DNA from: a bacterium
GTDB lineage: Bacteria; Patescibacteriota; WWE3; 2-01-FULL-39-13; JAACPI01
Length of the DNA stretch: 61,090 bases
Direction of reading: 5' to 3'
NCBI GenBank assembly: GCA_009995545.1
Contig: JAACPI010000004.1
Coordinates: 1-61,090 of the forward strand
The translations under genes were made by a program, and so were the position numbers. This document shows, one piece after another, positions 10,614 to 57,319 of this stretch; the first letter of the stretch is position 1; each line of letters starts with the position of its first letter. The notes beneath the pieces are model-generated. The model saw nothing but the letters and a program-made list of their open reading frames with translations. It was not told the DNA's origin and made no database searches.

Positions 10614-11199
10614 AGAAAAAGCCTTAGAGATACTTCATAAAAACATGCAGAATACTAATCTACGTAGACATTGTTATGCAGTAGGTTTTGCACTAGCGGG
10701 TATTTATGATTATTTAAAAGAAAATAATTGGAAAGCAGATAGCCCAGATAACTCGGAAGACTGGGAAATTTTAGGAATTTTACACGACAGCGATTACGAG
10801 TTAACTAAAGATGACTGGACACAGCATACTTTAAAAACTCTTGAGTGGTTTAAAGAAGAGGGAGTTTCTGAAACAGACCCTTTGTATTTAGCTGAAACGA
10901 GTCACAACAATAAAATAACAGGATTAAGAGAACCCCAAACCCAAATGGAATGGGCTTTAGAATGTTGTGACGAACTTACAGGTTTTATAGTAGCCATTGC
11001 CGTAATTAAACCAGAAAAAAAGCTTTCAGCTGTTGATGTAGCTGGAGTTAAAAAAAAGTTTAAACAAAAGGCCTTTGCCGCCGCAGTTGAAAGAGAGCAA
11101 ATCTCTCAGTGTGAAGAAAAATTAAACATACCCTTAGATGCCTTTGTAGAGGTGGTTTTAACTTCTATGCAGAAAAATTCCCAGGATCTAGGTTTATAG
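10597..11199 (+). CDS. HD-domain metal-dependent phosphohydrolase
   Basis: RRHCYAVGFA ... ILGILHDSDYE gives the H...HD...D pattern. It overlaps the lysS stop. ATG 10606 is an alternative start. Confidence 0.7.
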   Translation: MYKMTKEKALEILHKNMQNTNLRRHCYAVGFALAGIYDYLKENNWKADSPDNSEDWEILGILHDSDYELTKDDWTQHTLKTLEWFKEEGVSETDPLYLAETSHNNKITGLREPQTQMEWALECCDELTGFIVAIAVIKPEKKLSAVDVAGVKKKFKQKAFAAAVEREQISQCEEKLNIPLDAFVEVVLTSMQKNSQDLGL

Positions 11200-19638: not shown

Positions 19639-20619
19639 ATGATTAAACAAAATAAAGTTTTACAAGAAGACTTAAAAATAGAAGATACCGTTAGGCCTAA
19701 ATTCTTTAAAGATTTTATTGGGCAAAAAGAAACTAATAAAATTAAAATGTTTGTGGATGCTGCAAAAAATCGTAACGAGGTATTAGACCACTTTTTATTT
19801 TATGGTCCACCCGGACTTGGAAAAACTACCCTAGCTAATATTTTGGCTAACGAAATGGGAAAAAATATTCGTATAACAAGTGGACCAACACTTAGCAAAG
19901 TGAGCGATTTATCTTCTTTACTAACAAATATTTCCGAAGGAGATTTTTTATTTATAGATGAAATACATAGGCTAAATCGTAATATCGAGGAATTACTTTA
20001 TTCCGCAATGGAGGACTTCGCTTTGGATATATTTCTAGGTACAGGTCCAAGTGCTAGAACAGTAAGGGTAGACCTACCTAAATTTACTCTTATTGGTGCT
20101 ACTACTAGAATTGGTTTACTCACCAACCCTTTAAGAGATCGTTTTGGAGCAGTTCATAAATTAAAATTTTACTCTGCTGAAGATTTGCAAAAAATTATCA
20201 TTAGAAGCGCTAACTTACTTAATGTTTCTATCGAAGAAGTTGCTGCCCTAGAGCTTGGAAAAAGAAGCCGGGGTACTCCAAGAATTGCTAACCGACTTCT
20301 ACGCCGTGTACGAGATATTAGCGAAATATCGGGCGCAAAAAAAGTAAATTTAAAAAGTGTTTTAGATGCGTGTGAAATACTTGGTGTTGATAGCAAGGGT
20401 TTAGACGCAGAAGACAAAAGATTACTAAAAGTTTTAGCAGAGGACTTTGAACAAAAACCAGTCGGCCTTTCAACTCTATCTGCTTCTTTAAGCGAGGATA
20501 AACAAACCTTAGAAGAAGTAGTAGAGCCGTATTTAATACAGTTAGGGTTACTAAAAAGAACCAGTCAAGGAAGAATAATAACTGCCCGGGGAATAGAGCA
20601 CCTAAGAGAATCTAATTAA
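19639..20619 (+). CDS. ruvB: Holliday junction helicase RuvB
   Basis: GPPGLGKTTLA Walker A, FIDEIHRL Walker B, and GTPRIANRLLRRVRD. Confidence 0.95.
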   Translation: MIKQNKVLQEDLKIEDTVRPKFFKDFIGQKETNKIKMFVDAAKNRNEVLDHFLFYGPPGLGKTTLANILANEMGKNIRITSGPTLSKVSDLSSLLTNISEGDFLFIDEIHRLNRNIEELLYSAMEDFALDIFLGTGPSARTVRVDLPKFTLIGATTRIGLLTNPLRDRFGAVHKLKFYSAEDLQKIIIRSANLLNVSIEEVAALELGKRSRGTPRIANRLLRRVRDISEISGAKKVNLKSVLDACEILGVDSKGLDAEDKRLLKVLAEDFEQKPVGLSTLSASLSEDKQTLEEVVEPYLIQLGLLKRTSQGRIITARGIEHLRESN

Positions 20620-21910
20620 AGTATTGGTTTATTTTTTTAGGTTCAACGCCCTTAATATTACCCACTACTGCAACCTCAAAATTTTTAAGCTCGATTGCTT
20701 TTAGTTCTGAATTTATTTCATCTAATTTTATAGACATTAAGACATCTATTTTTTCTTTTGTGGTGTGTATTTTTTTCGAGTAAAAATAATCCCAAAGCAT
20801 ACCTCGACCGATACTTGTATGGGTATCGTTAGCAATCAGATTTCGATTTAGATTAAATGTTTTCCAGTGTTCAAGTTGTTTTTCACTAAATCCCTTTAAT
20901 TTAACTTTTTTTATTACTTTACTAATAGAATCTAGTATTTCATAAAATTTTTCTGAAGAACATTCATAGTTTAGTGAGACTAAGGAAAAGTTTTCGTATA
21001 TTAAATTGTCTAATCCGTATGAATATAGATATCCAGTTTTATCCCTAAGTTCTTTAAACAAAACTGAGGATTCTCCTTTTGCTAACATTCTTTGAAATAA
21101 CGCTGATGTAATATCTTCTCGTAAACTTGTTCCGCTTCTTCCCTTTACTTTTGTACTTAAACTTACTATTGGGTTGTTGGAAAGTTTAGAAGACTTTAAA
21201 ACTATTTTACCGGGTTCTCTAAATTCTGAGTTTAAAAAAGTAAGTTTTTTACTATCCTTGTTTAAAGACATTTTTTCAGAATAGTCTTTAATGTATCTTT
21301 CTACTTCTCTTTTTTTAAACTTTCCAGACACCGCTAGTACAATGTTTTTAGGTCCGTACTTGCTGTATGTTTTTAATAGCTCCTTTTTACCTATTAAATT
21401 TAGACTTTCGGCAGTGCCAAGGATATTTCCTGAATTTGCTGTGTTTATTTTTAAGTAATTGTTTTTAACGGTGTGGTAAGCCAAAACCCAGGGGTCGTTT
21501 AGATCTTTGTTTATTTCGTCTAATATTACCCTTCTTTCCGCCTCTACTTCTTTTTCATTAAAAAGTGCGTTTACTAGAGTATCTTCTAAAAATGTAAAAC
21601 CATATTTTAATTCTGTGTAGGGTAGTGTTATGTAATACCTTGTAAAATCGTAAGAAGTTCCTCCGTTGTGAATAGATCCTCGATACTCTATCTCTTTTTG
21701 TTTTACATTATACTTAGCTCTGGAGGATGATTTAAATACACAATGTTCTAAAAAATGAGCCTCTCCCCCTATTAAGTCAAGATTTGCACCTACTCTAATA
21801 TTAGCTGTGAAACTCACTGAATATGATTTTGGATCGGGGATTAAAATGTATTCTAACCCTTCCTTAGTTACTCCCTGTTCGTATTTTGTATCTTTTATTT
21901 CTAATTCCAT
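20612..21910 (-). CDS. M16-family (pitrilysin/insulinase-like) zinc peptidase
   Basis: The inverted zincin motif HFLEH is present (GEAHFLEHCVFK) in a 432-aa two-lobed protein. It overlaps the ruvB end convergently by 8 nt. Confidence 0.85.
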   Translation of the reverse strand: MELEIKDTKYEQGVTKEGLEYILIPDPKSYSVSFTANIRVGANLDLIGGEAHFLEHCVFKSSSRAKYNVKQKEIEYRGSIHNGGTSYDFTRYYITLPYTELKYGFTFLEDTLVNALFNEKEVEAERRVILDEINKDLNDPWVLAYHTVKNNYLKINTANSGNILGTAESLNLIGKKELLKTYSKYGPKNIVLAVSGKFKKREVERYIKDYSEKMSLNKDSKKLTFLNSEFREPGKIVLKSSKLSNNPIVSLSTKVKGRSGTSLREDITSALFQRMLAKGESSVLFKELRDKTGYLYSYGLDNLIYENFSLVSLNYECSSEKFYEILDSISKVIKKVKLKGFSEKQLEHWKTFNLNRNLIANDTHTSIGRGMLWDYFYSKKIHTTKEKIDVLMSIKLDEINSELKAIELKNFEVAVVGNIKGVEPKKINQYFN

Positions 21911-36619: not shown

Positions 36620-36964
36620 GTGAAAAATAATATTTTATTAAAAATTAAGAGCACTGGTAGAGAGGACAAAGAGTTAATTGTAAAGTACGGTACAGCTACG
36701 TACAAAAAGAATTTTTCCGGGGATTTTTTGTCTAACTTACAGTTAGTTCTTAGAGAAAAAGGGTTAAAAATTGCGGATGTTAGTAATATTTTACCTTTAA
36801 AGTCGGATAGCTTTACTGGGTTTAGAGAATCTGTAGTTATTGCTAATATTTTTAATGGTATTTATAAAAAAGTTCCTTTAAATAAGCTTGTGCTAGCCAA
36901 ATATCACAAAGAACCAAATATAAATATACGAACTAAAACTGCATCCCCAAAGCCTCTAAATTAG
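36620..36964 (+). CDS. Hypothetical 114-aa protein
   Basis: An ORF with a promoter-like box and no recognisable motif. Its 3' end overlaps the pgk 3' end by 32 nt. Confidence 0.4.
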   Translation: MKNNILLKIKSTGREDKELIVKYGTATYKKNFSGDFLSNLQLVLREKGLKIADVSNILPLKSDSFTGFRESVVIANIFNGIYKKVPLNKLVLAKYHKEPNINIRTKTASPKPLN

Positions 36965-37991
36965 TTTTTTTGTTTGCTAAAAAACTGAACATAGCACCTC
37001 CTCCGGTGGACACAAACGTATAGTTTTTAAAATTTCCAAACTTTTCTACCGCAGAAATAGTGTCACCTCCTCCAATTATTTTTAATGCCCGGGTATTACT
37101 TTCTATTGCTTCAATTAATTTGACCGTGGATTTTTGATAAAGTTCCGACTCAAATTTTCCTAGAGGCCCGTTCCATATAATTGTTGTTGCAGAAGAAACC
37201 CTAGAAGTAATTTGTTTTGTCGATTCTTCTGATATATCCAAACCACTGGGTAAAAGGTTTGCTAAGTAAGATCTGCCTTGCAAACTAGCACTAAGTTCCG
37301 GGGAGTTCATAATCTCTTTAGGCATAAGACCCCCTATTAAAAATAAATCAAAGTGAGACATTATATCTTGCATGAGGGGTATTTTAGTTTCAGCCTTGGC
37401 TCCCCCGAGCACAAAATAAGCTGGCCGTTCGAATCTCCCTATTCTAATTTTTGATAAATGACTTATTTCGTTTAAATAATTTTCGCCTGCAGCTACTTTG
37501 CCTATAACTTTGGGAAAAAAATAATTTGAGGCTTCTTTTCTATGACTCATGGCAAAGGCCTCATCTACAAAGTATTCGAATTGTTTTGTAACTTTGCTTA
37601 TTTCTTTTGCCTCTTCCGGGTTGTTTTTTAAGTAATCTAGCTCTGACCAAGAAAAAAATCTAATATTTTCAAATATAACTATTTTATTTTGGTCTATACT
37701 AATTTTTAGGTTGTTTAGTTCGTTTTCAAAATATATATTTTCACCTAATAAATACTTAAGTTTGGGGATTATATTTTTGGTACTTAAAGACTCTTCTTTT
37801 TTAGTAGGCCTTCCCAACTTAGTTAAAATTAAGATCTTATTGTTGTTTTTAAGAAGTGTAGAGATTGTGGGTATACATCGTTTAATTCTATAGTCACTAG
37901 ATATGTTTAGATTAATGTCTAAAGGTACATCAAAGTCACAACATACCACTACCTTGGAGTTAATGATTTCGGAGAGTGAGCAGTATTCCAT
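36933..37991 (-). CDS. pgk: Phosphoglycerate kinase (short form, 352 aa)
   Basis: TKLGRPTKKE (the SHLGRP equivalent), GGAKAETKI, WNGPLGKFE and GGGDTISAV ... STGGGA motifs. Confidence 0.85.
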   Translation of the reverse strand: MEYCSLSEIINSKVVVCCDFDVPLDINLNISSDYRIKRCIPTISTLLKNNNKILILTKLGRPTKKEESLSTKNIIPKLKYLLGENIYFENELNNLKISIDQNKIVIFENIRFFSWSELDYLKNNPEEAKEISKVTKQFEYFVDEAFAMSHRKEASNYFFPKVIGKVAAGENYLNEISHLSKIRIGRFERPAYFVLGGAKAETKIPLMQDIMSHFDLFLIGGLMPKEIMNSPELSASLQGRSYLANLLPSGLDISEESTKQITSRVSSATTIIWNGPLGKFESELYQKSTVKLIEAIESNTRALKIIGGGDTISAVEKFGNFKNYTFVSTGGGAMFSFLANKKTNLEALGMQF

Positions 37992-46738: not shown

Positions 46739-46742
46739 ACTT

Positions 46743-47240
46743 ATGGTAAATGAAGCAGAAAAGCCAATATTCGAGGATATTCAACGAAGAGAAATAATTG
46801 AGGAAATGCGTGCCTATTTATTTCCAGGTAATACGGAGTCTTTGAATGATAAATCTGAGATAAATAGATATATAGACGATACTGCCTTGAATATTCCTAC
46901 TAGTCTATTAATTTTGTTGAGGAGGCCCAACCGCTTCCCCGTGAATGAAACCTTTCCATCTTTTAATTCCGCACAAAAGACAAGAAAGGAAGAAGAATTA
47001 TATTCTAACCACATATCGACTGTGTTTAAAGGTTTAGCTATGGGTATGGTTTTTATTGAGTACGGGGATACACCGTATTTTAAGTACAGCTCCAAAAATA
47101 CTATAGACATATCTAGTGTAAGAAAAATGGTTGAAATTGATCTCTCATTGATTACTCTGTTAAAGCTGAATTCTCCTTATAACTATAGGAATTACATATA
47201 TAGGCAAAGATCTATAACCGATCATCCCTTCGCTATTTAA
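46743..47240 (+). CDS. Hypothetical 165-aa protein
   Basis: The ORF starts 4 nt after the SDR gene stop. No recognisable motif. Confidence 0.45.
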   Translation: MVNEAEKPIFEDIQRREIIEEMRAYLFPGNTESLNDKSEINRYIDDTALNIPTSLLILLRRPNRFPVNETFPSFNSAQKTRKEEELYSNHISTVFKGLAMGMVFIEYGDTPYFKYSSKNTIDISSVRKMVEIDLSLITLLKLNSPYNYRNYIYRQRSITDHPFAI

Positions 47241-47522
47241 GTCTTAAGTACATATTTACTATACAAAAATTGTAGATATCTATTGACTATAGGTTATAAA
47301 TAATATACTATTTTCCTGTTTACAATTCTGCCCCCCCATAATTGTAACCAATTTGGGTGGGCACATTCATAATTTATCTTAGTCAACAAAAAACTTGCAT
47401 AAGTTTCTTCTTGAATAAGCGGACTACATTAAGAGCATTAATAACGTGTTTTTAATGTAGTTCGTTTTATTCACTCGGCCTAGGCAATCTCGCCGTAGGC
47501 ATTCAACCAAAAGGAGAAACAA

Positions 47523-48308
47523 ATGTTTGACAATCTATTGATTGGTGGTCGTTTTTGGGATGGGAAAAGTGAAGATCCGAGCCAGCTTTTGGCCTGGGTA
47601 GAGGCTCACTCAAACATTGCAAAACTTGCGGTCGCCGTCAACATTGCGAACGACAAGTCCCATGCAGTGAAGGCTCTACAGGAAGGTGGCGTAGCTACAG
47701 CAATCCCTGTCCAGCCTTGGCTCAGATGGTCACCAGCGCTTCTGGCTCTTACAGCAGAAGCAGTTCGACAGGGAAAGGAGTACGTACTATTTCTTTCCAC
47801 CACAATGCGGGTCGACGAGGTCTCAGTAGGGGCCCTAGTGCAAATTATGGATGAGAATCCTAGCATTATGCATCTCGGCCCGGCTTTTCCCGAACACGAC
47901 TTCCAACCAGGAGTCAACAAGATTCGGGGGAGAACTGTAGGTTGGAACAACTGTTCCATTCACCGAGTCAGTGCGCTATCTGGCTTTGGTTTCCAGCCCG
48001 GGTCTGAGGGACTTCTGGATCCTAAGGCGCAGGGAGTTGAGGAGGTGGTCTACGATTCTTTGAACCAGGCAATCCGCGGTCGTCAAAATCACCGAGTTCT
48101 CCTAGTGAAAGGACTTCCCGGTCTTATTGTATGGGATGTTAATACGGACTCGCATGGGGCCTGGTATGTGGTATACCACAATGACAAGCTTCAGTCGAAG
48201 GACGATCGTCCCGACGCTCAGTTGCGATTGCTGGGACTCTCCGCTGGAGAAGTCTGGCATGCCGAGTATGGAGATCTTCTCCAGAATGGGATGCCCTGGA
48301 ATCGTTAA
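47523..48308 (+). CDS. Hypothetical 261-aa protein encoded by a GC-rich foreign-looking cassette; weak GT-A-like features
   Basis: A strong SD (aaggag) lies 6 nt before the ATG. A hand count gives 32/60 G+C at 47641-47700, versus 19/60 at 46741-46800. GRTVGWNNCSIHRVSALSGFGF loosely resembles the GT2 G.N.a.rr.....GgF block, but no DxD motif is present (LFLSTTMRVDE). Confidence 0.7.
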   Translation: MFDNLLIGGRFWDGKSEDPSQLLAWVEAHSNIAKLAVAVNIANDKSHAVKALQEGGVATAIPVQPWLRWSPALLALTAEAVRQGKEYVLFLSTTMRVDEVSVGALVQIMDENPSIMHLGPAFPEHDFQPGVNKIRGRTVGWNNCSIHRVSALSGFGFQPGSEGLLDPKAQGVEEVVYDSLNQAIRGRQNHRVLLVKGLPGLIVWDVNTDSHGAWYVVYHNDKLQSKDDRPDAQLRLLGLSAGEVWHAEYGDLLQNGMPWNR

Positions 48309-48334
48309 GGTTGACTAAGTTTATGTAAACAACA

Positions 48335-48394
48335 GGAGGTCCCGGAGGACTAAAGAGCGTATTTCAGTACAAAACTCTTTAGACTCCGGCCTCC
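48335..48394 (+). terminator. Long GC-rich imperfect hairpin immediately after the GC-rich gene
   Basis: ggagg-tcccggag-gac-taaagag (48335-57) pairs with ctcttta-ga-ctccgg-cctcc (48375-94) in three helical segments of 5, 6 and 7 bp. No T-run follows. Confidence 0.5.
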
Positions 48395-48402
48395 AGTCAA
48401 CC

Positions 48403-48432
48403 AAATGTATAGCTAGGCTATACATTTTTAAT
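48403..48432 (+). terminator. AT-rich perfect hairpin plus T-run (intrinsic terminator)
   Basis: aaatgtatagc-tag-gctatacattt is followed by ttaatt. Confidence 0.6.
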
Positions 48433-48540
48433 TATATCTTATTTTTAAGGTATTTAACTACAGGTTATGTGTTTAAAAAAGATGAAACTATAAAAATTTC
48501 ACTTCTTTTAAGTACAAAATAAGTACTTTAAAACAAAAAA

Positions 48541-49575
48541 ATGACTACTAAGAGAGATGAAACAATAAACTACCCAACCGTCCTAAGTGAGTCTTGGGAT
48601 AAAAATATTCAAGTATCTTTAATACGTCCAGATGTGGTAAAAAAAGAGGAATTATGGACTAATAAAGGAATTCCTGAAGGTGCCGCAAGTTGGAGATTAA
48701 AAAGAGAGTATTCTACTTTACAGTATTTAAGTACTCAAGGCTTACCTGTTCCAACTCCTCTAGATATTACAGAAGGTAGTGGTGTGCGTGGAGCCGAAGC
48801 TATTGCATTTACAATGCGGAGAGTCCCTGGTTACTCCTTAGACTTCCCTGACTCTCCAGATAGAATTGACCATTTCGAAGATTTTCGTGCTAATTTTGAA
48901 TGTTATCTTGAGGATGCTTTAGAGTCTTTAGACTCCATACACAAAGCCGGCTATGCTTTAGGGGATATAAAGCCTGGAACTTTTATTATTAATCCAAAAA
49001 CAAAAAAAGTGACTTTAGTGGATTTTGAATTTGCTTACAGTGTCAAAGACCTTGAACAAAATATGGGGTATGGGGCTAATTCACTATTAAATTCTCTGAA
49101 AGTGGATCCAGGAATCGCTTGTTTAATAAACAATTTAACACAACCCTCCCCGGGTATTTCGTTTGAACAGGCTAAGATGATAGAAATTTCTTCTTTGGTC
49201 AGGTATTTTTGTATTTTAGCTTCTTCGGATTTAGATAACCCAGTTGAGTTAAAATCTATCGAGTTTTCCGAAAATGAACTTAATCAGCTTATGGAGGCTG
49301 CAAGATATTCTTCAACGCTCCATTATTTGGACCGAGCAGGTATTCCTATTAATGGTGTTAGTAGTATTGATTTTAGAAGTTTTACTGAGCAAATTGGTGA
49401 TGACTACGTACACCCCGCTTTTATGAGATACGGGTATGAAGCAGCGTTTAGAAAGCAAGCTGTTACATCTTTAACCACCTTGGGTATAGAACTATCCGAA
49501 TCACTTCGTCAGTTTATAAATAAAAGCTTAAGTTTAGATTTATCCAGAAGACCAATTAATTACAAATTAAAATAA
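48541..49575 (+). CDS. Atypical protein-kinase-like (APH/choline-kinase/ePK-like) phosphotransferase
   Basis: The catalytic-loop-like GDIKPGTFII (D142 ... T147, where kinases have Asn) is followed by VTLVDFEFA (D161-F-E, the DFG/DxE equivalent). There is no clear Gly-rich loop. A C-terminal extension of about 150 aa is present. Confidence 0.55.
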   Translation: MTTKRDETINYPTVLSESWDKNIQVSLIRPDVVKKEELWTNKGIPEGAASWRLKREYSTLQYLSTQGLPVPTPLDITEGSGVRGAEAIAFTMRRVPGYSLDFPDSPDRIDHFEDFRANFECYLEDALESLDSIHKAGYALGDIKPGTFIINPKTKKVTLVDFEFAYSVKDLEQNMGYGANSLLNSLKVDPGIACLINNLTQPSPGISFEQAKMIEISSLVRYFCILASSDLDNPVELKSIEFSENELNQLMEAARYSSTLHYLDRAGIPINGVSSIDFRSFTEQIGDDYVHPAFMRYGYEAAFRKQAVTSLTTLGIELSESLRQFINKSLSLDLSRRPINYKLK

Positions 49576-53056: not shown

Positions 53057-54130
53057 ATGAATAATTTTCAGATGGACGGGGGGTCTGGCAATTCGAATTC
53101 CCAAATTTCGATTCCTAAAGGACCTGAAATTGAAGATTCCTTACACCACTTAAAAAATTTAGGGGACCAGCTATGGGAAGACTGTAGAGATGTTTCTAGG
53201 ACAGGTGAGGTTAGAGGAGTACTAGACCGTAGTTTTATTGAAAACTATGTGTTTAACGATGCGAATTTTTCGAAATTTGTTGTAAGAAACTTGCCTAATC
53301 CTACGGAGTTAATAGATCAATTGGCTGTCTTAGACTTGCCTGAAAACTTTCTCGCGGTAAACCTAGGTTCAGGTTGGGGTAATGATACTAGAAATCTTTT
53401 AAGAGATCCTCGAATGAGACCAAGAATGGTCATTGATCTGGAGTTAGAACCTACTGTCTCTGTATATGATAATGACGAAAACCGCGCCAGCGGGTTTTCT
53501 GGCCGCACAAGATCCTTGGTAGGTGATCTCCGATCTACACCCTTTCCAAATCATAAATCCGAAAATGGTCCCCTCGTGCATTTGGTTTTTTCCTCTGGAG
53601 TCGGTCGTTATCAGGTCCCAAGTAAACTTGGCGGAGTCGAGGAGCTAGATCGTAGGATGTCGGACAGTCTAAGTATAGTTAGAAGTGGGGGCTACACCGT
53701 GCATATGGAGATGGGAGATGCAGCTAAGACATTCTTTTTTGGAGGCAAAGACTGTGGGGGAGGATTTAATACAGTGCTTAAGAATAGGGGCTACCAGGCT
53801 GCACCACAGAGCAAGCATCTAGAAAAAGGAGAATATTCAGTTAAGAAATTAGTAGTCAGCAACTTACCGAGGTTTACAAGATGGTACCTTTTATACGCAA
53901 TTACTTCAGGTGACCATAATTTAAATTTGCCCCCAGATACGGATTCTAATAATCTTAATGAGATAGAAGAACTAGTTCAAAACCTAAGGTCTCTCGTCAA
54001 AGAAGAATTAAGGAGAAATGGTAAAAATCTAGATTTTAGCTCCTCTAACCCTGACTACTTGAAGTTACTTTTAGAAATTGCGGGATCTGAGGATAAGGAA
54101 TCTTACATTGTCACTGCTCGAAAACATTAA
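53057..54130 (+). CDS. Hypothetical Rossmann-like protein, distant paralog of 50271..51209 (NLGSG motif)
   Basis: FLAVNLGSGWGND, MVIDLEL, LVHLVFSSGVG and VRSGGYTVHM occur in the same order as the motifs in 50271..51209. There are GC-rich patches (30/60 at 53461-53520). Confidence 0.45.
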   Translation: MNNFQMDGGSGNSNSQISIPKGPEIEDSLHHLKNLGDQLWEDCRDVSRTGEVRGVLDRSFIENYVFNDANFSKFVVRNLPNPTELIDQLAVLDLPENFLAVNLGSGWGNDTRNLLRDPRMRPRMVIDLELEPTVSVYDNDENRASGFSGRTRSLVGDLRSTPFPNHKSENGPLVHLVFSSGVGRYQVPSKLGGVEELDRRMSDSLSIVRSGGYTVHMEMGDAAKTFFFGGKDCGGGFNTVLKNRGYQAAPQSKHLEKGEYSVKKLVVSNLPRFTRWYLLYAITSGDHNLNLPPDTDSNNLNEIEELVQNLRSLVKEELRRNGKNLDFSSSNPDYLKLLLEIAGSEDKESYIVTARKH

Positions 54131-54168: not shown

Positions 54169-55248
54169 ATGAAAGTACTAGTAACAGGAGCCGCAGGATA
54201 TATTGGTAGCTACGTAGCAAGGGCTCTGCTTTGGAGAGGCGATGATGTGGTTGGGTTAGATAATTTTAATTTTTACTACCCTCGTAACTGTAAAGAGTTC
54301 CACGTAGACTTGTGCCACAAGGCCTCTGGTCGAAAAACTCATTATTTTTCTGGAGAAACTATTGATCCTGTTTATAAGAAATTAAAAGGTTATTTTGATG
54401 GGAAAAAAGCTAAGGAACCTGGTCAATTTAGTTTTTATGAAGCAGATATTACCAATTACGAATTTTTAGAATACATTTTTACCAGAGAAAAACCTGATGC
54501 GGTAATTCACCTTGCTGCAATGGCAGGAGTTCCTTTTTCAACTAAACAACCTAGAGTTTACTCTAGTGTAAACGTTGATGGAACAACCAACTTATTAAAC
54601 TTGTGCAAAGAAGTTGGTACAAATAAGTTTATATTTGCCTCTTCCTCCTCAGTTTATGGGGACATGGGTGGGGGGTTAGTAACAGAAAAAGACGATGTAA
54701 CAAGGGCGGTTTCAATTTATGGAGCTACTAAGGTTGCAGGTGAATCCATTAGCCATGCGGCTCATGCAATATATGGAATTAACTGTGTAAATATAAGAAT
54801 ATTTGGGCCAATTTATGGACCTCTTCAAAGACCCTATGGGATGTTTTTACCTCGGGCGATAAACTTTATACGTAACAATAAGATAATGCAGATTTATGGT
54901 AGAAAAGGTCTTGAAACGGCTAAAGACAGTACCTATATTGATGATCTAGTAGATGGTTTATTACTTGCTTTAGACAGCGATGTTAAATTTGATGTATTTA
55001 ATATAGGTACACAAAACCCCCAATCGATTCAACAATGGCTTGACGCTGTTGAAAAGGCTTATGGAGAGCCTGTAAAATATAAAATTGTAGATGTAGATGT
55101 TGCCGATGTAGCTAGTAGTGCCAGTATTGCTAAGGCCCGTAAAATTCTTGGCTACTCTCCAAAAGCAACTTTGGAAGAAGGTGTTAAAAGACAGGTAGAG
55201 GTGTTTAAAATGATGCCTGAGTGGTACCAAACTATGGATAATGTTTAA
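54169..55248 (+). CDS. NAD-dependent nucleotide-sugar epimerase (UDP-glucuronate/UDP-glucose 4-epimerase-like), canonical
   Basis: VTGAAGYIGS, ASSSSVYGD, YGATKVAGE (intact YxxxK), and IRIFGPIYGP. Confidence 0.88.
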   Translation: MKVLVTGAAGYIGSYVARALLWRGDDVVGLDNFNFYYPRNCKEFHVDLCHKASGRKTHYFSGETIDPVYKKLKGYFDGKKAKEPGQFSFYEADITNYEFLEYIFTREKPDAVIHLAAMAGVPFSTKQPRVYSSVNVDGTTNLLNLCKEVGTNKFIFASSSSVYGDMGGGLVTEKDDVTRAVSIYGATKVAGESISHAAHAIYGINCVNIRIFGPIYGPLQRPYGMFLPRAINFIRNNKIMQIYGRKGLETAKDSTYIDDLVDGLLLALDSDVKFDVFNIGTQNPQSIQQWLDAVEKAYGEPVKYKIVDVDVADVASSASIAKARKILGYSPKATLEEGVKRQVEVFKMMPEWYQTMDNV

Positions 55249-55291: not shown

Positions 55292-56251
55292 ATGGATATT
55301 TCCACGGTTGTACGAGTACACAACAATGAAAAAACAATTGAAGAGCTTTACGAAAGACTTTCAAAAACTTTAGGCAAGTTTGGTAGGTCTTATGAGACTA
55401 TTTTCATAAACGACGGATCTACAGACAAATCCTGGAGTATAATTTCTAAAATTCAAAGAAAAGATCCCCACGTTAAAGCTATAAACTTTACAAGACACCA
55501 CGGTGAATCCGCTGGTTTGCAAGCTGGCTTTGAGCACAGTAAAGGAGAGTATATTTTTACACTAAGCCCCACCTTAGAAAACGCCCCCGAAGAGCTTAAA
55601 AAACTTTTTAATAAACTTTTAAAAGGTAAGCATGATATGGTGGTAGGGAATAGGGTTGGAAGACATGGTGGTAGGCCCCTAACCAAAATCGCCTCAAAAT
55701 TTGCCCATAAAGTAATTAGTTTAGTTATTCCCCATACATATAACGATGTAACCTCCCCTTTCAGGGTGATGCGTAGCGAGATTTCTAAAAATTTAAAACT
55801 ATACGGTGACTCTCATTTATTGCTTCCCGTATTAGCTAGTATGTATGGTGCTAATTTTGCAGAAGTTAAAATTAAACATTACCCATTAAAGTATATTGAG
55901 ATGAAGGCAGTAAAAACTAGTCTTATTAAAGTATTATTCGACTTAGTGTTATTGAAATTTTTTATATCCTCTACTACGCCTCCTTTTAATGCTACCCCCA
56001 TAAGATTTATGGGTATACTAGGTGTTACTTCTACATTTGTAGGGCTATCCATTGGTGTCTATTTGAGTGTTTTAAAAATGTTTTACGGCCAAGATATAGG
56101 GGGTAGACCAATGTTACTGTTGGCTTTTTTGCTTATGATTATTGGAGTATTATTTGTTTTAATGGGTCTATTAGGAGAGATTATAATAAGAACTTACTTT
56201 GAAAGCGCTAAAAAATCTATTTATACTATTAGAGATAAACTAGACTTTTAA
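55292..56251 (+). CDS. GT2 polyprenol-phosphate sugar transferase (ArnC/GtrB-like, two C-terminal TMs)
   Basis: FINDGSTD is followed by a GT2 core and a C-terminal GQDIGGRPMLLLAFLLMIIGVLFVLMGLLGEIIIRTYFES block typical of ArnC/GtrB/DPM-type enzymes. Confidence 0.85.
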   Translation: MDISTVVRVHNNEKTIEELYERLSKTLGKFGRSYETIFINDGSTDKSWSIISKIQRKDPHVKAINFTRHHGESAGLQAGFEHSKGEYIFTLSPTLENAPEELKKLFNKLLKGKHDMVVGNRVGRHGGRPLTKIASKFAHKVISLVIPHTYNDVTSPFRVMRSEISKNLKLYGDSHLLLPVLASMYGANFAEVKIKHYPLKYIEMKAVKTSLIKVLFDLVLLKFFISSTTPPFNATPIRFMGILGVTSTFVGLSIGVYLSVLKMFYGQDIGGRPMLLLAFLLMIIGVLFVLMGLLGEIIIRTYFESAKKSIYTIRDKLDF

Positions 56252-56275
56252 TATTTAACAAATTTTATTTTAACT

Positions 56276-57319
56276 ATGGAAAGAGATATGAAATTACTAG
56301 CTTCTAAACCTAAGAACAACTTAGTTTCTATTATTATCCCAGCTTACAGAGAGGCCGGAAATGTTAAAAGATACAAAAAAGAACTAATGCCTTTTTTAGA
56401 AAAATTACAGTATCCTTACGAATTAATTATTACCGAAGATGGTTCTGCTGACAAAGATGCAAGAGACAATACTTGGGGCGAAATGTTGCAACTCCAAAAA
56501 GAATTTCCTAAAACAGTTACTGTTTTAAGACACGCAAGAAATTACGGTATGACTGGGGCAATGCAAACAGGTGTTGAGGCTAGTAAAGGTGACTATATTA
56601 TTTTTTACTCTGCTGATTTAGAAATAGATCCCGATGAAATAAAAACAGTTATTGAAAAACTTGATGAAGGTTACGATTTTGTAAATACCGAAAGAGAAAA
56701 AAGATGGAATGAATCATTTATAGACAAAGCAGTTAGAAGTATTCCTTCTAAGTTTGCAAGTAGTTTAATTACAAAAGTGCTCAAAACTAATATGGCCGAC
56801 AACGGGTCGGGGTTAAAGGGTTATAAAAGATACATTATTGAAAACATGAATTTGTACGGCGAAATGCAAAGGTTAATGGCCAGCTATACTGGTAACTTAA
56901 CCAGAAACTATACTGAGATTCCTGTTAAATACTTAGAAAGAACCTTTGGGGAAAGTGCTTACGGAGGAATAAAAGGGATGTTTAAAAGAACTTTTGCAGT
57001 TATTTTAGACTTAACAGGCTTAAAATTTATGGCAACTTTTTCTACAAAGCCCTTTACCTTAATGCCTAGTAGGGCCTTTGGTTTTACTGGAATATTAATA
57101 TTTTCATTAGGATTAATGGATACTATTTACATGATAGCTCTAAAGTTAATGGGCCAAGACATAGGTACAAGGCCTTTATTTATAGTCGGTCTAATATTTA
57201 TAGTTTTAGGTGTTCAAATGGTTATGTTTGGTATGCTTGGAGAGCTTATGCTTAGAACCTACTACGAGAGTGGGAAAACTAAAAACTTTATTGTTGCAGA
57301 TAAAATAGAGAGAAAATAA
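56276..57319 (+). CDS. GT2 polyprenol-phosphate sugar transferase (tandem paralog)
   Basis: SIIIPAYREAGNV, ITEDGSAD and YSADLEIDP are present, along with the same C-terminal GQDIGTRPLF...LGELMLRTYYES block. Confidence 0.85.
   Translation: MERDMKLLASKPKNNLVSIIIPAYREAGNVKRYKKELMPFLEKLQYPYELIITEDGSADKDARDNTWGEMLQLQKEFPKTVTVLRHARNYGMTGAMQTGVEASKGDYIIFYSADLEIDPDEIKTVIEKLDEGYDFVNTEREKRWNESFIDKAVRSIPSKFASSLITKVLKTNMADNGSGLKGYKRYIIENMNLYGEMQRLMASYTGNLTRNYTEIPVKYLERTFGESAYGGIKGMFKRTFAVILDLTGLKFMATFSTKPFTLMPSRAFGFTGILIFSLGLMDTIYMIALKLMGQDIGTRPLFIVGLIFIVLGVQMVMFGMLGELMLRTYYESGKTKNFIVADKIERK

Follow-up and report, generated by a model that had tools for sequence, protein, structure and literature searches.

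Genes whose G+C content departs from that of the surrounding genome are routinely taken as recently acquired by horizontal transfer, and an amelioration model for such compositionally atypical, transferred genes is said to have been proposed by Lawrence and Ochman in 1997. Atypical G+C is also a property of O-antigen and capsule loci, in which variable glycosyltransferase (GT) genes lie between conserved flanks with a conserved leader such as JUMPstart/ops. To our knowledge, almost no riboregulation has been described in the Patescibacteria. Pairing between the 5' untranslated region (5' UTR) and the 3' UTR of one and the same mRNA has been studied experimentally for icaR of Staphylococcus aureus (PMC3868564) and for hbs of Bacillus subtilis (PMC5737220). 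Here, we analyzed a 61,090-nt stretch of DNA (GenBank contig JAACPI010000004.1; hereafter, the window), a bacterial chromosome segment that encodes SecA, BipA, LysRS, SerRS, SufB, SufS and PGK. SecA is 70% identical to that of a named candidate-division WWE3 genome, and the matches that follow are to WWE3 or Patescibacteria; judged by SecA and by the aquifer metagenomes that contain the sequence, the organism is an aquifer bacterium of candidate division WWE3 (Katanobacteria, Patescibacteria). Our subject is a single open reading frame (ORF 47523..48308, + strand, 261 aa) with its untranslated regions, together called the cassette, for which the routine reading of atypical G+C fails.

The ORF has a G+C content of 0.519 against 0.340 for the whole window, of which it is the most G+C-rich 786-nt stretch (the next reaches 0.433). 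Relative to the 55 other window ORFs of at least 150 aa, it deviates in overall G+C (z = 6.8) and at each codon position (GC1, z = 4.8; GC2, z = 2.4; GC3, z = 6.5), as well as in codon usage and in amino-acid bias (z = +3.1 for GARP residues and -3.5 for FYMINK residues). The composition is, therefore, as foreign as had been claimed in the original prediction, which was made from the letters of the window and whose hand counts (32/60 G+C at 47641-47700 and 19/60 at 46741-46800) are exact. That prediction had also delimited a G+C-rich cassette of about 1.1 kb; this is right for the coding sequence (CDS) and the first 3' hairpin, to which the rise is limited, but not for the leader (47241-47522), at 0.326 G+C. 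The long antisense and overlapping ORFs, already taken there to be spurious, have frames that are not conserved across alleles, and on this ground the antisense ORF was ruled out as an overlapping gene.

The G+C island is found again in relatives. Proteins 33-41% identical to the window protein are encoded at four other loci, and the gene and background G+C of the five alleles are as follows:

Window gene: gene G+C 0.519, background 0.337
L007 (protein P0003): gene G+C 0.508, background 0.340, z 5.7
L014 (protein P0004): gene G+C 0.548, background 0.352, z 6.9
L016 (protein P0009): gene G+C 0.561, background 0.334
L015 (protein P0005): gene G+C 0.476, background 0.417, z 2.4

In four of the five diverged lineages, the G+C of the gene thus exceeds that of the genome by about 17-23 points, and in the fifth by 6, well past synonymous saturation. 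Between the window and L007, the four-fold degenerate sites of the CDS are saturated (identity 0.29; saturation expectation 0.27) and those of the flanking epimerase nearly so (0.45 vs 0.35), and GC3 in the window and in L007 is 0.50 and 0.56 for the CDS, against 0.25 and 0.28 for the epimerase. All five alleles have one non-native codon usage, in which CTN is preferred over TTR, CGN over AGR and AAG over AAA, and in which the third bases at four-fold sites are near uniform. P0001, P0003, P0004 and P0005 group as a clade with a bootstrap of 56/60 (93%), and of 36/60 when P0009 is added. Outside this clade the gene is compositionally native, both at L021 (0.567 vs 0.567) and L022 (0.512 vs 0.499) and in a homologue from Parcubacteria (0.414 vs 0.394). 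The site itself is syntenic: the left-flank proteins of L007 are 81% and 75% identical to those of the window, and L016 opens with the end of the same 117-aa gene. On its right, the cassette of L007 is followed by unrelated genes, which places the cassette gene at the edge of a variable block.

The best family matches of the window protein (42%, 41% and 35% identity) are all alleles of AT-rich genomes, and no closer homologue from a G+C-rich organism or a host was present among 1.84 billion representative proteins. A host as the donor, as had been suggested, thus finds no counterpart in that collection. The broader idea of a G+C-rich donor survives in part: members that are native in genomes of 50-57% G+C make an original, ancient donor of that composition plausible, but no donor homologue was found. 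We also dropped a eukaryotic donor, considered when the first match (P0002) proved to lie on a contig with an intron-split proteasome gene, once closer, AT-rich bacterial relatives had appeared.

Our preferred reading, which we consider rather likely, is that of an old, self-contained and probably riboregulated glycosyltransferase cassette with a donor-like composition that has been maintained, that is, a persistent G+C island. A genome of about 50-57% G+C is the probable source from which the gene, long ago, entered the lineage, and its base and codon composition would since have been held against AT-biased mutation; the cause may be selection on an mRNA-level property or else GC-biased repair at a recombining locus. 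The gene would be transcribed alone from TTGACT-17-TACTAT, to give an mRNA whose 5' UTR, about 205 nt long, would contain a strand complementary to the Shine-Dalgarno sequence (SD) that sequesters both SD and AUG, and a terminator-like hairpin that may act in attenuation. Pairing of the 5' UTR with the first bases past the stop codon would further close the mRNA, and a long 3' hairpin and a terminator would seal its 3' end. A masked SD/AUG, an attenuator-like hairpin and paired ends would together imply that expression is switched by some signal after transcription has started, in contrast to the mostly SD-less and apparently leaderless neighbor genes.

The elements of the cassette, which bear out the description of a unit that has a promoter, a long structured leader, an SD and a terminator of its own, are listed here from 5' to 3':

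47283..47311, + strand: sigma-70-like promoter, with -35 TTGACT (47283-47288), a 17-nt spacer and -10 TACTAT (47306-47311); conserved in L007 and L016
47317..47350, + strand: 5'-proximal hairpin around a C7 run (inverted repeat of 14 nt, 86% complementary)
47378..47387, + strand: 5' strand CTTAGTCAAC of a putative 5' UTR-3' UTR closing helix; perfect 10-nt complement of 48310-48319
47397..47412, + strand: putative anti-SD/anti-AUG strand GCATAAGTTTCTTCTT, paired with AAGGAGAAACAAATG (47511-47525) in minimum free energy (MFE) and centroid folds
47417..47467, + strand: leader hairpin followed by a U-run, terminator-like, a possible attenuator (inverted repeat and terminator scan)
47475..47493, + strand: leader block TCGGCCTAGGCAATCTCGC, a small hairpin; conserved in L007 and L016
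47511..47516, + strand: Shine-Dalgarno sequence AAGGAG, 6 nt before the ATG (anti-SD duplex of -8.7 kcal/mol); conserved in L007 and L016
47523..48308, + strand: CDS, 261 aa, GT-A-fold glycosyltransferase-like (AlphaFold2 model, Foldseek)
48309..48402, + strand: 94-nt 3'-UTR hairpin, with outer stem GGTTGACT/AGTCAACC (48309-48316/48395-48402) and inner G+C-rich stems at 48335-48394
48310..48319, + strand: 3' strand GTTGACTAAG of the putative closing helix, 2 nt after the stop codon (complementarity, folds)
48403..48432, + strand: intrinsic terminator, 11-bp stem AAATGTATAGC/GCTATACATTT and T-run; TATAGC/GCTATA conserved in L007
In the mRNA: putative closing helix, CUUAGUCAAC/GUUGACUAAG

Promoter-like hexamers alone are not above chance in this AT-rich region (14 found vs 25 expected in shuffles), and what speaks for the call at 47283-47311 is that L007 and L016 conserve the promoter block CTATTGACTATAGG together with its 17-nt distance to TACnnT, not the hexamer match alone. 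The TTGACT-N15-TATACT pair proposed earlier is present, with its alternative -10 at 47304-47309, but TACTAT at a spacer of 17 is better spaced; from this promoter, transcription would start at about 47318. The leader folds with z = -8.4 relative to shuffles, and the inverted repeats described in it are indeed present, at 47317-47350 and 47417-47467. As read from the alignment, L007 and L016 have a hairpin with a different loop at the place equivalent to the first of these, and the anti-SD helix is retained in L016, where a U.G pair has become C-G, and in part in L007, which keeps CAUGG:CCAUG; in the consensus fold, GCAUAAGUUUCUUCUU masks AAGGAGAAACAAAUG, the segment that holds SD and AUG. The arms of the second hairpin, AAGCGGACTACATTAAGAGCATT and GTGTTTTTAATGTAGTTCGTTTT, are identical over 23-24 nt in L007. 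The hairpin has a U-run behind it at all three loci (window, L007 and L016) and is scored as an intrinsic terminator, which makes attenuation possible. The leader consensus fold of the window and L016 has 35 pairs, none of them broken, and three compensatory double changes; CTTAGTC, TCGGCCnAGGCAATCTCGC and the SD are further blocks common to all three leaders. Leader identity in this comparison is 0.71-0.75, against about 0.33-0.65 in the CDS, where it is highest at the 5' end. Rfam 15 gave no gathering-score match in the window (only chance-level ones at E<=10 in 47200-48500) and no match in the UTRs of L007, L014, L015 and L016. In L007, the loop of the leader hairpin is enlarged by about 105 nt of G+C-rich sequence (1574-1680), an insertion that forms nested hairpins of its own and has no Rfam match.

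That the SD is unlike the start signals of native genes was likewise correct. An anti-SD duplex of -6 kcal/mol or stronger is formed by only two of 56 ORFs, this gene and ORF 20612..21910 (- strand), an M16 peptidase preceded by TTGGAGG. The native genes almost all lack an SD, and in several of them a TATAAT-like box precedes the ATG by 7-10 nt (e.g., 36933..37991 on the - strand, 54169..55248 and 55292..56251), a pattern that suggests mainly leaderless mRNAs. Taken together, these features suggest that this small genome uses two modes of translation side by side, one SD-led and the other leaderless. The anti-SD is reported to be lost only rarely and, within the candidate phyla radiation (CPR), to be missing mainly in a subgroup of Parcubacteria (PMC9297842).

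On the 3' side, the trailer (48300-48440) folds with z = -7.8 relative to shuffles. The G+C-rich hairpin at 48335-48394, together with the terminator at 48403-48432 that follows it, had been noticed before; the hairpin is real and extends to the outer stem, but it is not the terminator of a donor. It is instead a structure of the 3' UTR that has been conserved: L016 has it in nearly identical form, and in L007 the outer stem is invariant and the inner stems are re-paired through five compensatory pairs. The post-stop blocks GGTTGACTAAGT ... CCAGTCAACC, and then the terminator, are common to the window, L007 and L016, and trailer identity reaches 0.80. L014 and L015 have promoters, leaders and multi-hairpin trailers of their own; the L014 trailer is long and G+C-rich, and in L015, 3' of the homologue (10805-10925), two hairpins share a loop sequence of about 20 nt (AAGTCAAATTGCAATCCGAC in one and AAGTCAAATTTGCAATCCGAC, longer by a single T, in the other).

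An integron attC site was also considered for the 3' hairpin and discarded on visual inspection: GTTGACT is on the 5' side and AGTCAAC on the 3' side, opposite to the R''...R' order, and neither of the two is an exact fit to RYYYAAC/GTTRRRY. Four of the six GTTGACT/AGTCAAC heptamers in the window fall within 47381-48401 (at 47381, 47912, 48310 and 48395), and three of these four join predicted alternative UTR pairings. Over-representation of the heptamer was discarded, the window total being at chance (6 found vs 5.7 expected).

In the putative closing helix, leader CUUAGUC(AAC) would pair with (GUU)GACUAAG just past the stop codon, with a pair probability of at least 0.99 when the full transcripts from the window, from L007 and from L016 are folded; bases 48310-48319 can alternatively pair locally with 48395-48401. 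The helix is 10-16 nt long in the three genomes and its extensions covary (TTACAA/TTGTAA in L016; ACTTA/TAAGT in L007). An AAC-to-GAU change in L007 still allows pairing, and since it does so only through G.U wobbles, it favors an interaction at the level of RNA. For L007 and L016, the cognate duplexes are the most stable ones.

The encoded protein, as modeled by AlphaFold2 from a family alignment (pLDDT 95.6, pTM 0.92), is a single Rossmann-like alpha/beta/alpha domain with the strand order of the GT-A fold. All of the top 50 Foldseek matches in the PDB are GT-A enzymes (probability 1.0; TM up to 0.58), the best being EXTL2/GT64 (E = 6e-8; TM 0.55-0.58), followed by GnT-I, TarP, TarS, SpsA, mannosylglycerate synthase (MGS) and hyaluronan synthase, with a sequence identity to the window protein of only about 10-14%. 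The protein has no match in Pfam, NCBIfam or the PDB sequences, none of 46 family members has a Pfam match and a profile of these 46 sequences finds no PDB sequence. An exhaustive HMMER scan of the 1.84 billion representatives returned 369 family representatives at E<=1e-3, 135 of them at <=1e-10 and the best 42% identical; a word-indexed search of 15 billion proteins showed one relative only. The family extends to Parcubacteria, other bacteria and eukaryotes, including the diatom Thalassiosira, and in longer relatives the domain is fused to NAD sugar-nucleotide epimerase, 5'-nucleotidase/metallophosphoesterase or AMP-binding domains. On the basis of the model, then, the protein is a GT-A-fold member of an uncurated family. 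At ENA locus L006 (ERZ27237443, 3.5 kb), a family copy of 67% G+C adjoins the intron-split gene of a proteasome alpha subunit, and other members on eukaryotic contigs (the L006, L010-L013 set) lie near copia-type reverse transcriptase, BTB, ankyrin and LRR genes.

Model and Foldseek agree with the suggestion of a GT-A-like protein that lacks DxD. The metal-binding DxD (or xED) motif expected after strand beta-4 is missing from the protein, which after the strand at E87-91 reads S92-T93-T94; the family consensus at this position is S-x-E, with only S92 invariant. The invariant residues of the family are R10, W66, S92, G119, H125, W141, G171, E173, E174 and K226. Some GT-A enzymes are metal-independent, so that the absence of DxD lowers the claim to activity without excluding it. 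The fold is thus given by the model, and activity is a further step, on which the genomic context and the domain fusions bear; the protein is probably a metal-independent nucleotide-sugar transferase, which would transfer a sugar without a DxD-bound metal, with E173/E174 and a K222/K226/R229 cluster as the candidate groups.

The gene sits within a surface-glycan locus, with GT2, GT4, UDP-glucose dehydrogenase, several NAD epimerases/dehydratases, a kinase-like protein and a HAD hydrolase as neighbors, and the homologues of the relatives are also within glycan loci. Eight assembly loci (L001-L005 and L017-L019), assembled with SPAdes or MEGAHIT or by JGI, match the window at 99.93-99.99% identity over as much as 20.8 kb and span both cassette junctions. 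Three Logan contigs (52.7, 32.4 and 4.1 kb), each from a different run, also cross 46900-48800 without differences. The cassette sequence is contained in at least 22 aquifer-metagenome runs, and the identical 261-aa protein is recorded in 48 blocks of the protein collection. Across the eight strain-level assemblies the cassette has a single SNP (47826 G>T, V102L); P0168 is merely this V102L variant and hence uninformative on rates. P0171, a relative of the SecA protein, stems from an unrelated run and gave no link to L007 or L016. Elsewhere, 11 of 19 variant sites among these assemblies cluster at 55975-56779, in GT2 genes 55292..56251 and 56276..57319. Three exact-motif scans (two of metagenome contigs and one viral) gave no match; since the JGI contigs L003 and L004 do carry the motif, absence from the metagenome-contig scans is uninformative for this organism. 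Scans of genome contigs with the flanking epimerase and with a 21-mer of the leader gave no match either.

Several neighboring features deserve mention. Between the conserved epimerase and the cassette lies a 165-aa ORF (46743..47240) with no Pfam match, which is missing in L007, where an AT-rich spacer of 700 nt is found instead, and in L016; gene content upstream of the cassette is thus also variable. Farther to the right, a near-perfect inverted repeat of 22-26 nt (52969-52999/54167-54197) corresponds to the 5' ends (MKVLVTG...) of two divergent epimerase paralogues and brackets a 357-aa ORF (53057..54130), also with no Pfam match, which is the second-highest G+C bump of the window (0.433, peak 0.483). 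Gene conversion involving the two paralogues could account for the repeat pair, as could an invertible segment. In L015, a bacterial class-A RNase P RNA lies at the contig end (18052-18378; 89 bits against a gathering score of 100; E = 7e-26).

A number of observations count against a maintained and riboregulated cassette. Structure in the CDS beyond that expected from composition is inconsistent (z from -0.7 to -3.2, vs +0.8 to -2.6 for controls), and -10-like motifs, ATGs and AT-runs within the CDS are no scarcer than codon usage predicts; thus, there is no direct evidence of selection on composition. A/T runs of at least 6 nt number 0-15 per allele against 77-90 in native genes, but by composition alone. 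Divergence of the CDS far outpaces that of its flanks, a pattern also compatible with allele replacement. As to the closing helix, the window's own duplex is the weakest (-14.5 kcal/mol) and less stable than non-cognate combinations, chance 5'-3' helices turn up in the MFE folds of control genes as well, closure is absent from L015 and ambiguous in L014, and the shared UTRs come from three genomes only, which limits covariation statistics. The gene was found in no RNA-seq run, so that start site, attenuation, SD switch and 5'-3' pairing are predictions, and the absent DxD leaves the predicted catalytic activity unproven.

A stronger version of this reading, in which selection and not history keeps the CDS at about 52% G+C and base composition is itself a part of the regulatory design, seems to us doubtful. 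The mRNA would then be SD-dependent, with a masked start, paired ends and a G+C-rich body poor in A/T runs, which are possible entry points for ribosomes and AU-directed RNases, as might suit, for example, a long-lived, stored or tightly silenced message. If true, this would explain how five lineages have resisted amelioration, and the leader and 3' hairpin would constitute a new class of cis-regulatory RNA of CPR bacteria.

The alternative that best withstands the evidence is cassette swapping, in which ancient, divergent alleles circulate among related WWE3 bacteria, or come from an unsampled G+C-richer reservoir, and displace each other through homologous recombination across the conserved UTRs, in the manner of serotype-specific genes of O-antigen and capsule loci. 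We judge this unlikely, and find it similarly hard to favor the corollary that G+C is held high by repeated re-import or by GC-biased gene conversion at the site. Allele exchange with GC-biased conversion is nevertheless a serious rival, since the CDS diverges faster (33-41% identity) than the left-flank proteins (75-81%) and the UTRs (71-80%), and since the genes on the right differ in L007, at the edge of the variable block. The UTRs are, moreover, mosaic, with the arms of the leader hairpin identical between the window and L007 and the 3' hairpin near-identical between the window and L016. Against this, identity does not break sharply at the ends of the CDS but decays gradually from its 5' end, no intermediate alleles (50-99% identical) were present among 15 billion proteins and the strain-level assemblies differ by one SNP in the cassette. 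The window holds no silent copy of the gene, and donor cassettes of the vls type were discarded for this reason. A G+C-richer reservoir, in addition, would presumably not share the AT-rich UTRs needed as homology arms.

Recent horizontal acquisition from a much G+C-richer donor, possibly the host, of a gene that brought the donor's terminator and has not been ameliorated was the explanation offered in the original prediction, and is highly improbable. It would account for a composition, codon usage and amino-acid usage that are foreign at all codon positions and for the unusual SD, and the family does have native members in 50-57% G+C genomes and G+C-rich homologues in eukaryotes. However, the same G+C-rich gene is present in L007, L014 and L016 and, more weakly, in L015, in relatives so diverged that synonymous sites are saturated, and on this the proposal of a recent acquisition fails. 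The alleles form one clade at a syntenic site with conserved AT-rich UTRs, the 3' hairpin is conserved with them and the nearest homologue (42% identical) belongs to an AT-rich relative. The window contains no tRNA, repeats at the cassette borders are short and at chance level, with no repeat-bounded mobile signature, and no integrase family is among the recorded Pfam matches for genes called within about 10 kb on either side.

We give still less credence to the possibility that the complementary segments (10-16 bp; 47378-47387/48310-48319) act as DNA inverted repeats, bounding an invertible, phase-variable segment or forming the terminal repeats of a small mobile cassette. Phase-variable glycosyltransferases are common, the inverted repeat is perfect in three genomes, L007 shows mirrored 4-nt duplications and GTTGACT is clustered between 47381 and 48401, as noted above. 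Nevertheless, the orientation is the same in the eight assemblies, the three Logan contigs and both relatives, bearing in mind that contigs drop rare variants; about 0.9 perfect 10-nt inverted repeats are expected by chance in 1.4 kb, by our estimate; the L007 change (AAC to GAT) pairs only as RNA wobbles; and neither a recombinase in the locus nor other copies of the element were seen. Finally, an assembly chimera, in which a G+C-rich foreign fragment was joined into an AT-rich contig, is suggested by the abrupt change in composition only and can be set aside, as SPAdes, MEGAHIT, JGI and Logan assemblies, built independently and from many samples, have identical junctions and uniform depth, and as relatives have the same arrangement.

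An old and maintained cassette is of interest on several counts. It offers a natural test case for the forces that may oppose amelioration, namely selection on the mRNA, GC-biased conversion and cassette exchange. Its leader that would mask SD and AUG, its 5'-3' UTR closing helix and its 94-nt 3' hairpin are candidate cis-regulatory RNAs. In addition, the analysis defines an uncurated, DxD-less family of the GT-A fold, with 369 representative clusters from CPR, other bacteria and eukaryotes such as diatoms, which merits a family model of its own.

When set beside the systems described at the outset, the cassette resembles the genes covered by the amelioration model in its deviant G+C at all codon positions, in its codon and amino-acid usage and in having native relatives in G+C-richer genomes, but differs from them in that the deviation has not decayed despite synonymous saturation in several lineages. 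Like O-antigen and capsule genes, it lies where a conserved flank gives way to a variable block, with a divergent CDS behind a conserved leader; unlike these, its G+C is above that of the genome, only a single gene is concerned and the leader is unlike JUMPstart and belongs to no Rfam family. The likeness to icaR lies in the 5'-3' helix of 10-16 nt, predicted in three cassette genomes with covarying extensions (modest statistics, n = 3). In icaR, however, the 3' UTR pairs with the SD, whereas in the cassette SD and AUG would be masked within the 5' UTR, by 47397-47412, and the 3' strand would pair with a separate upstream segment (47378-47387), a prediction from sequence for an uncultured CPR bacterium. 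The protein, lastly, has the same fold as the GT-A enzymes EXTL2 (GT64), GnT-I (GT13), TarP, TarS and SpsA (GT2) and mannosylglycerate synthase (GT78), and its gene keeps the same genomic company of nucleotide-sugar enzymes and other glycosyltransferases; in contrast to these enzymes, it is devoid of DxD and has a conserved set of its own, formed by R10, W66, H125, W141-N142, E173-E174, K226 and R229.

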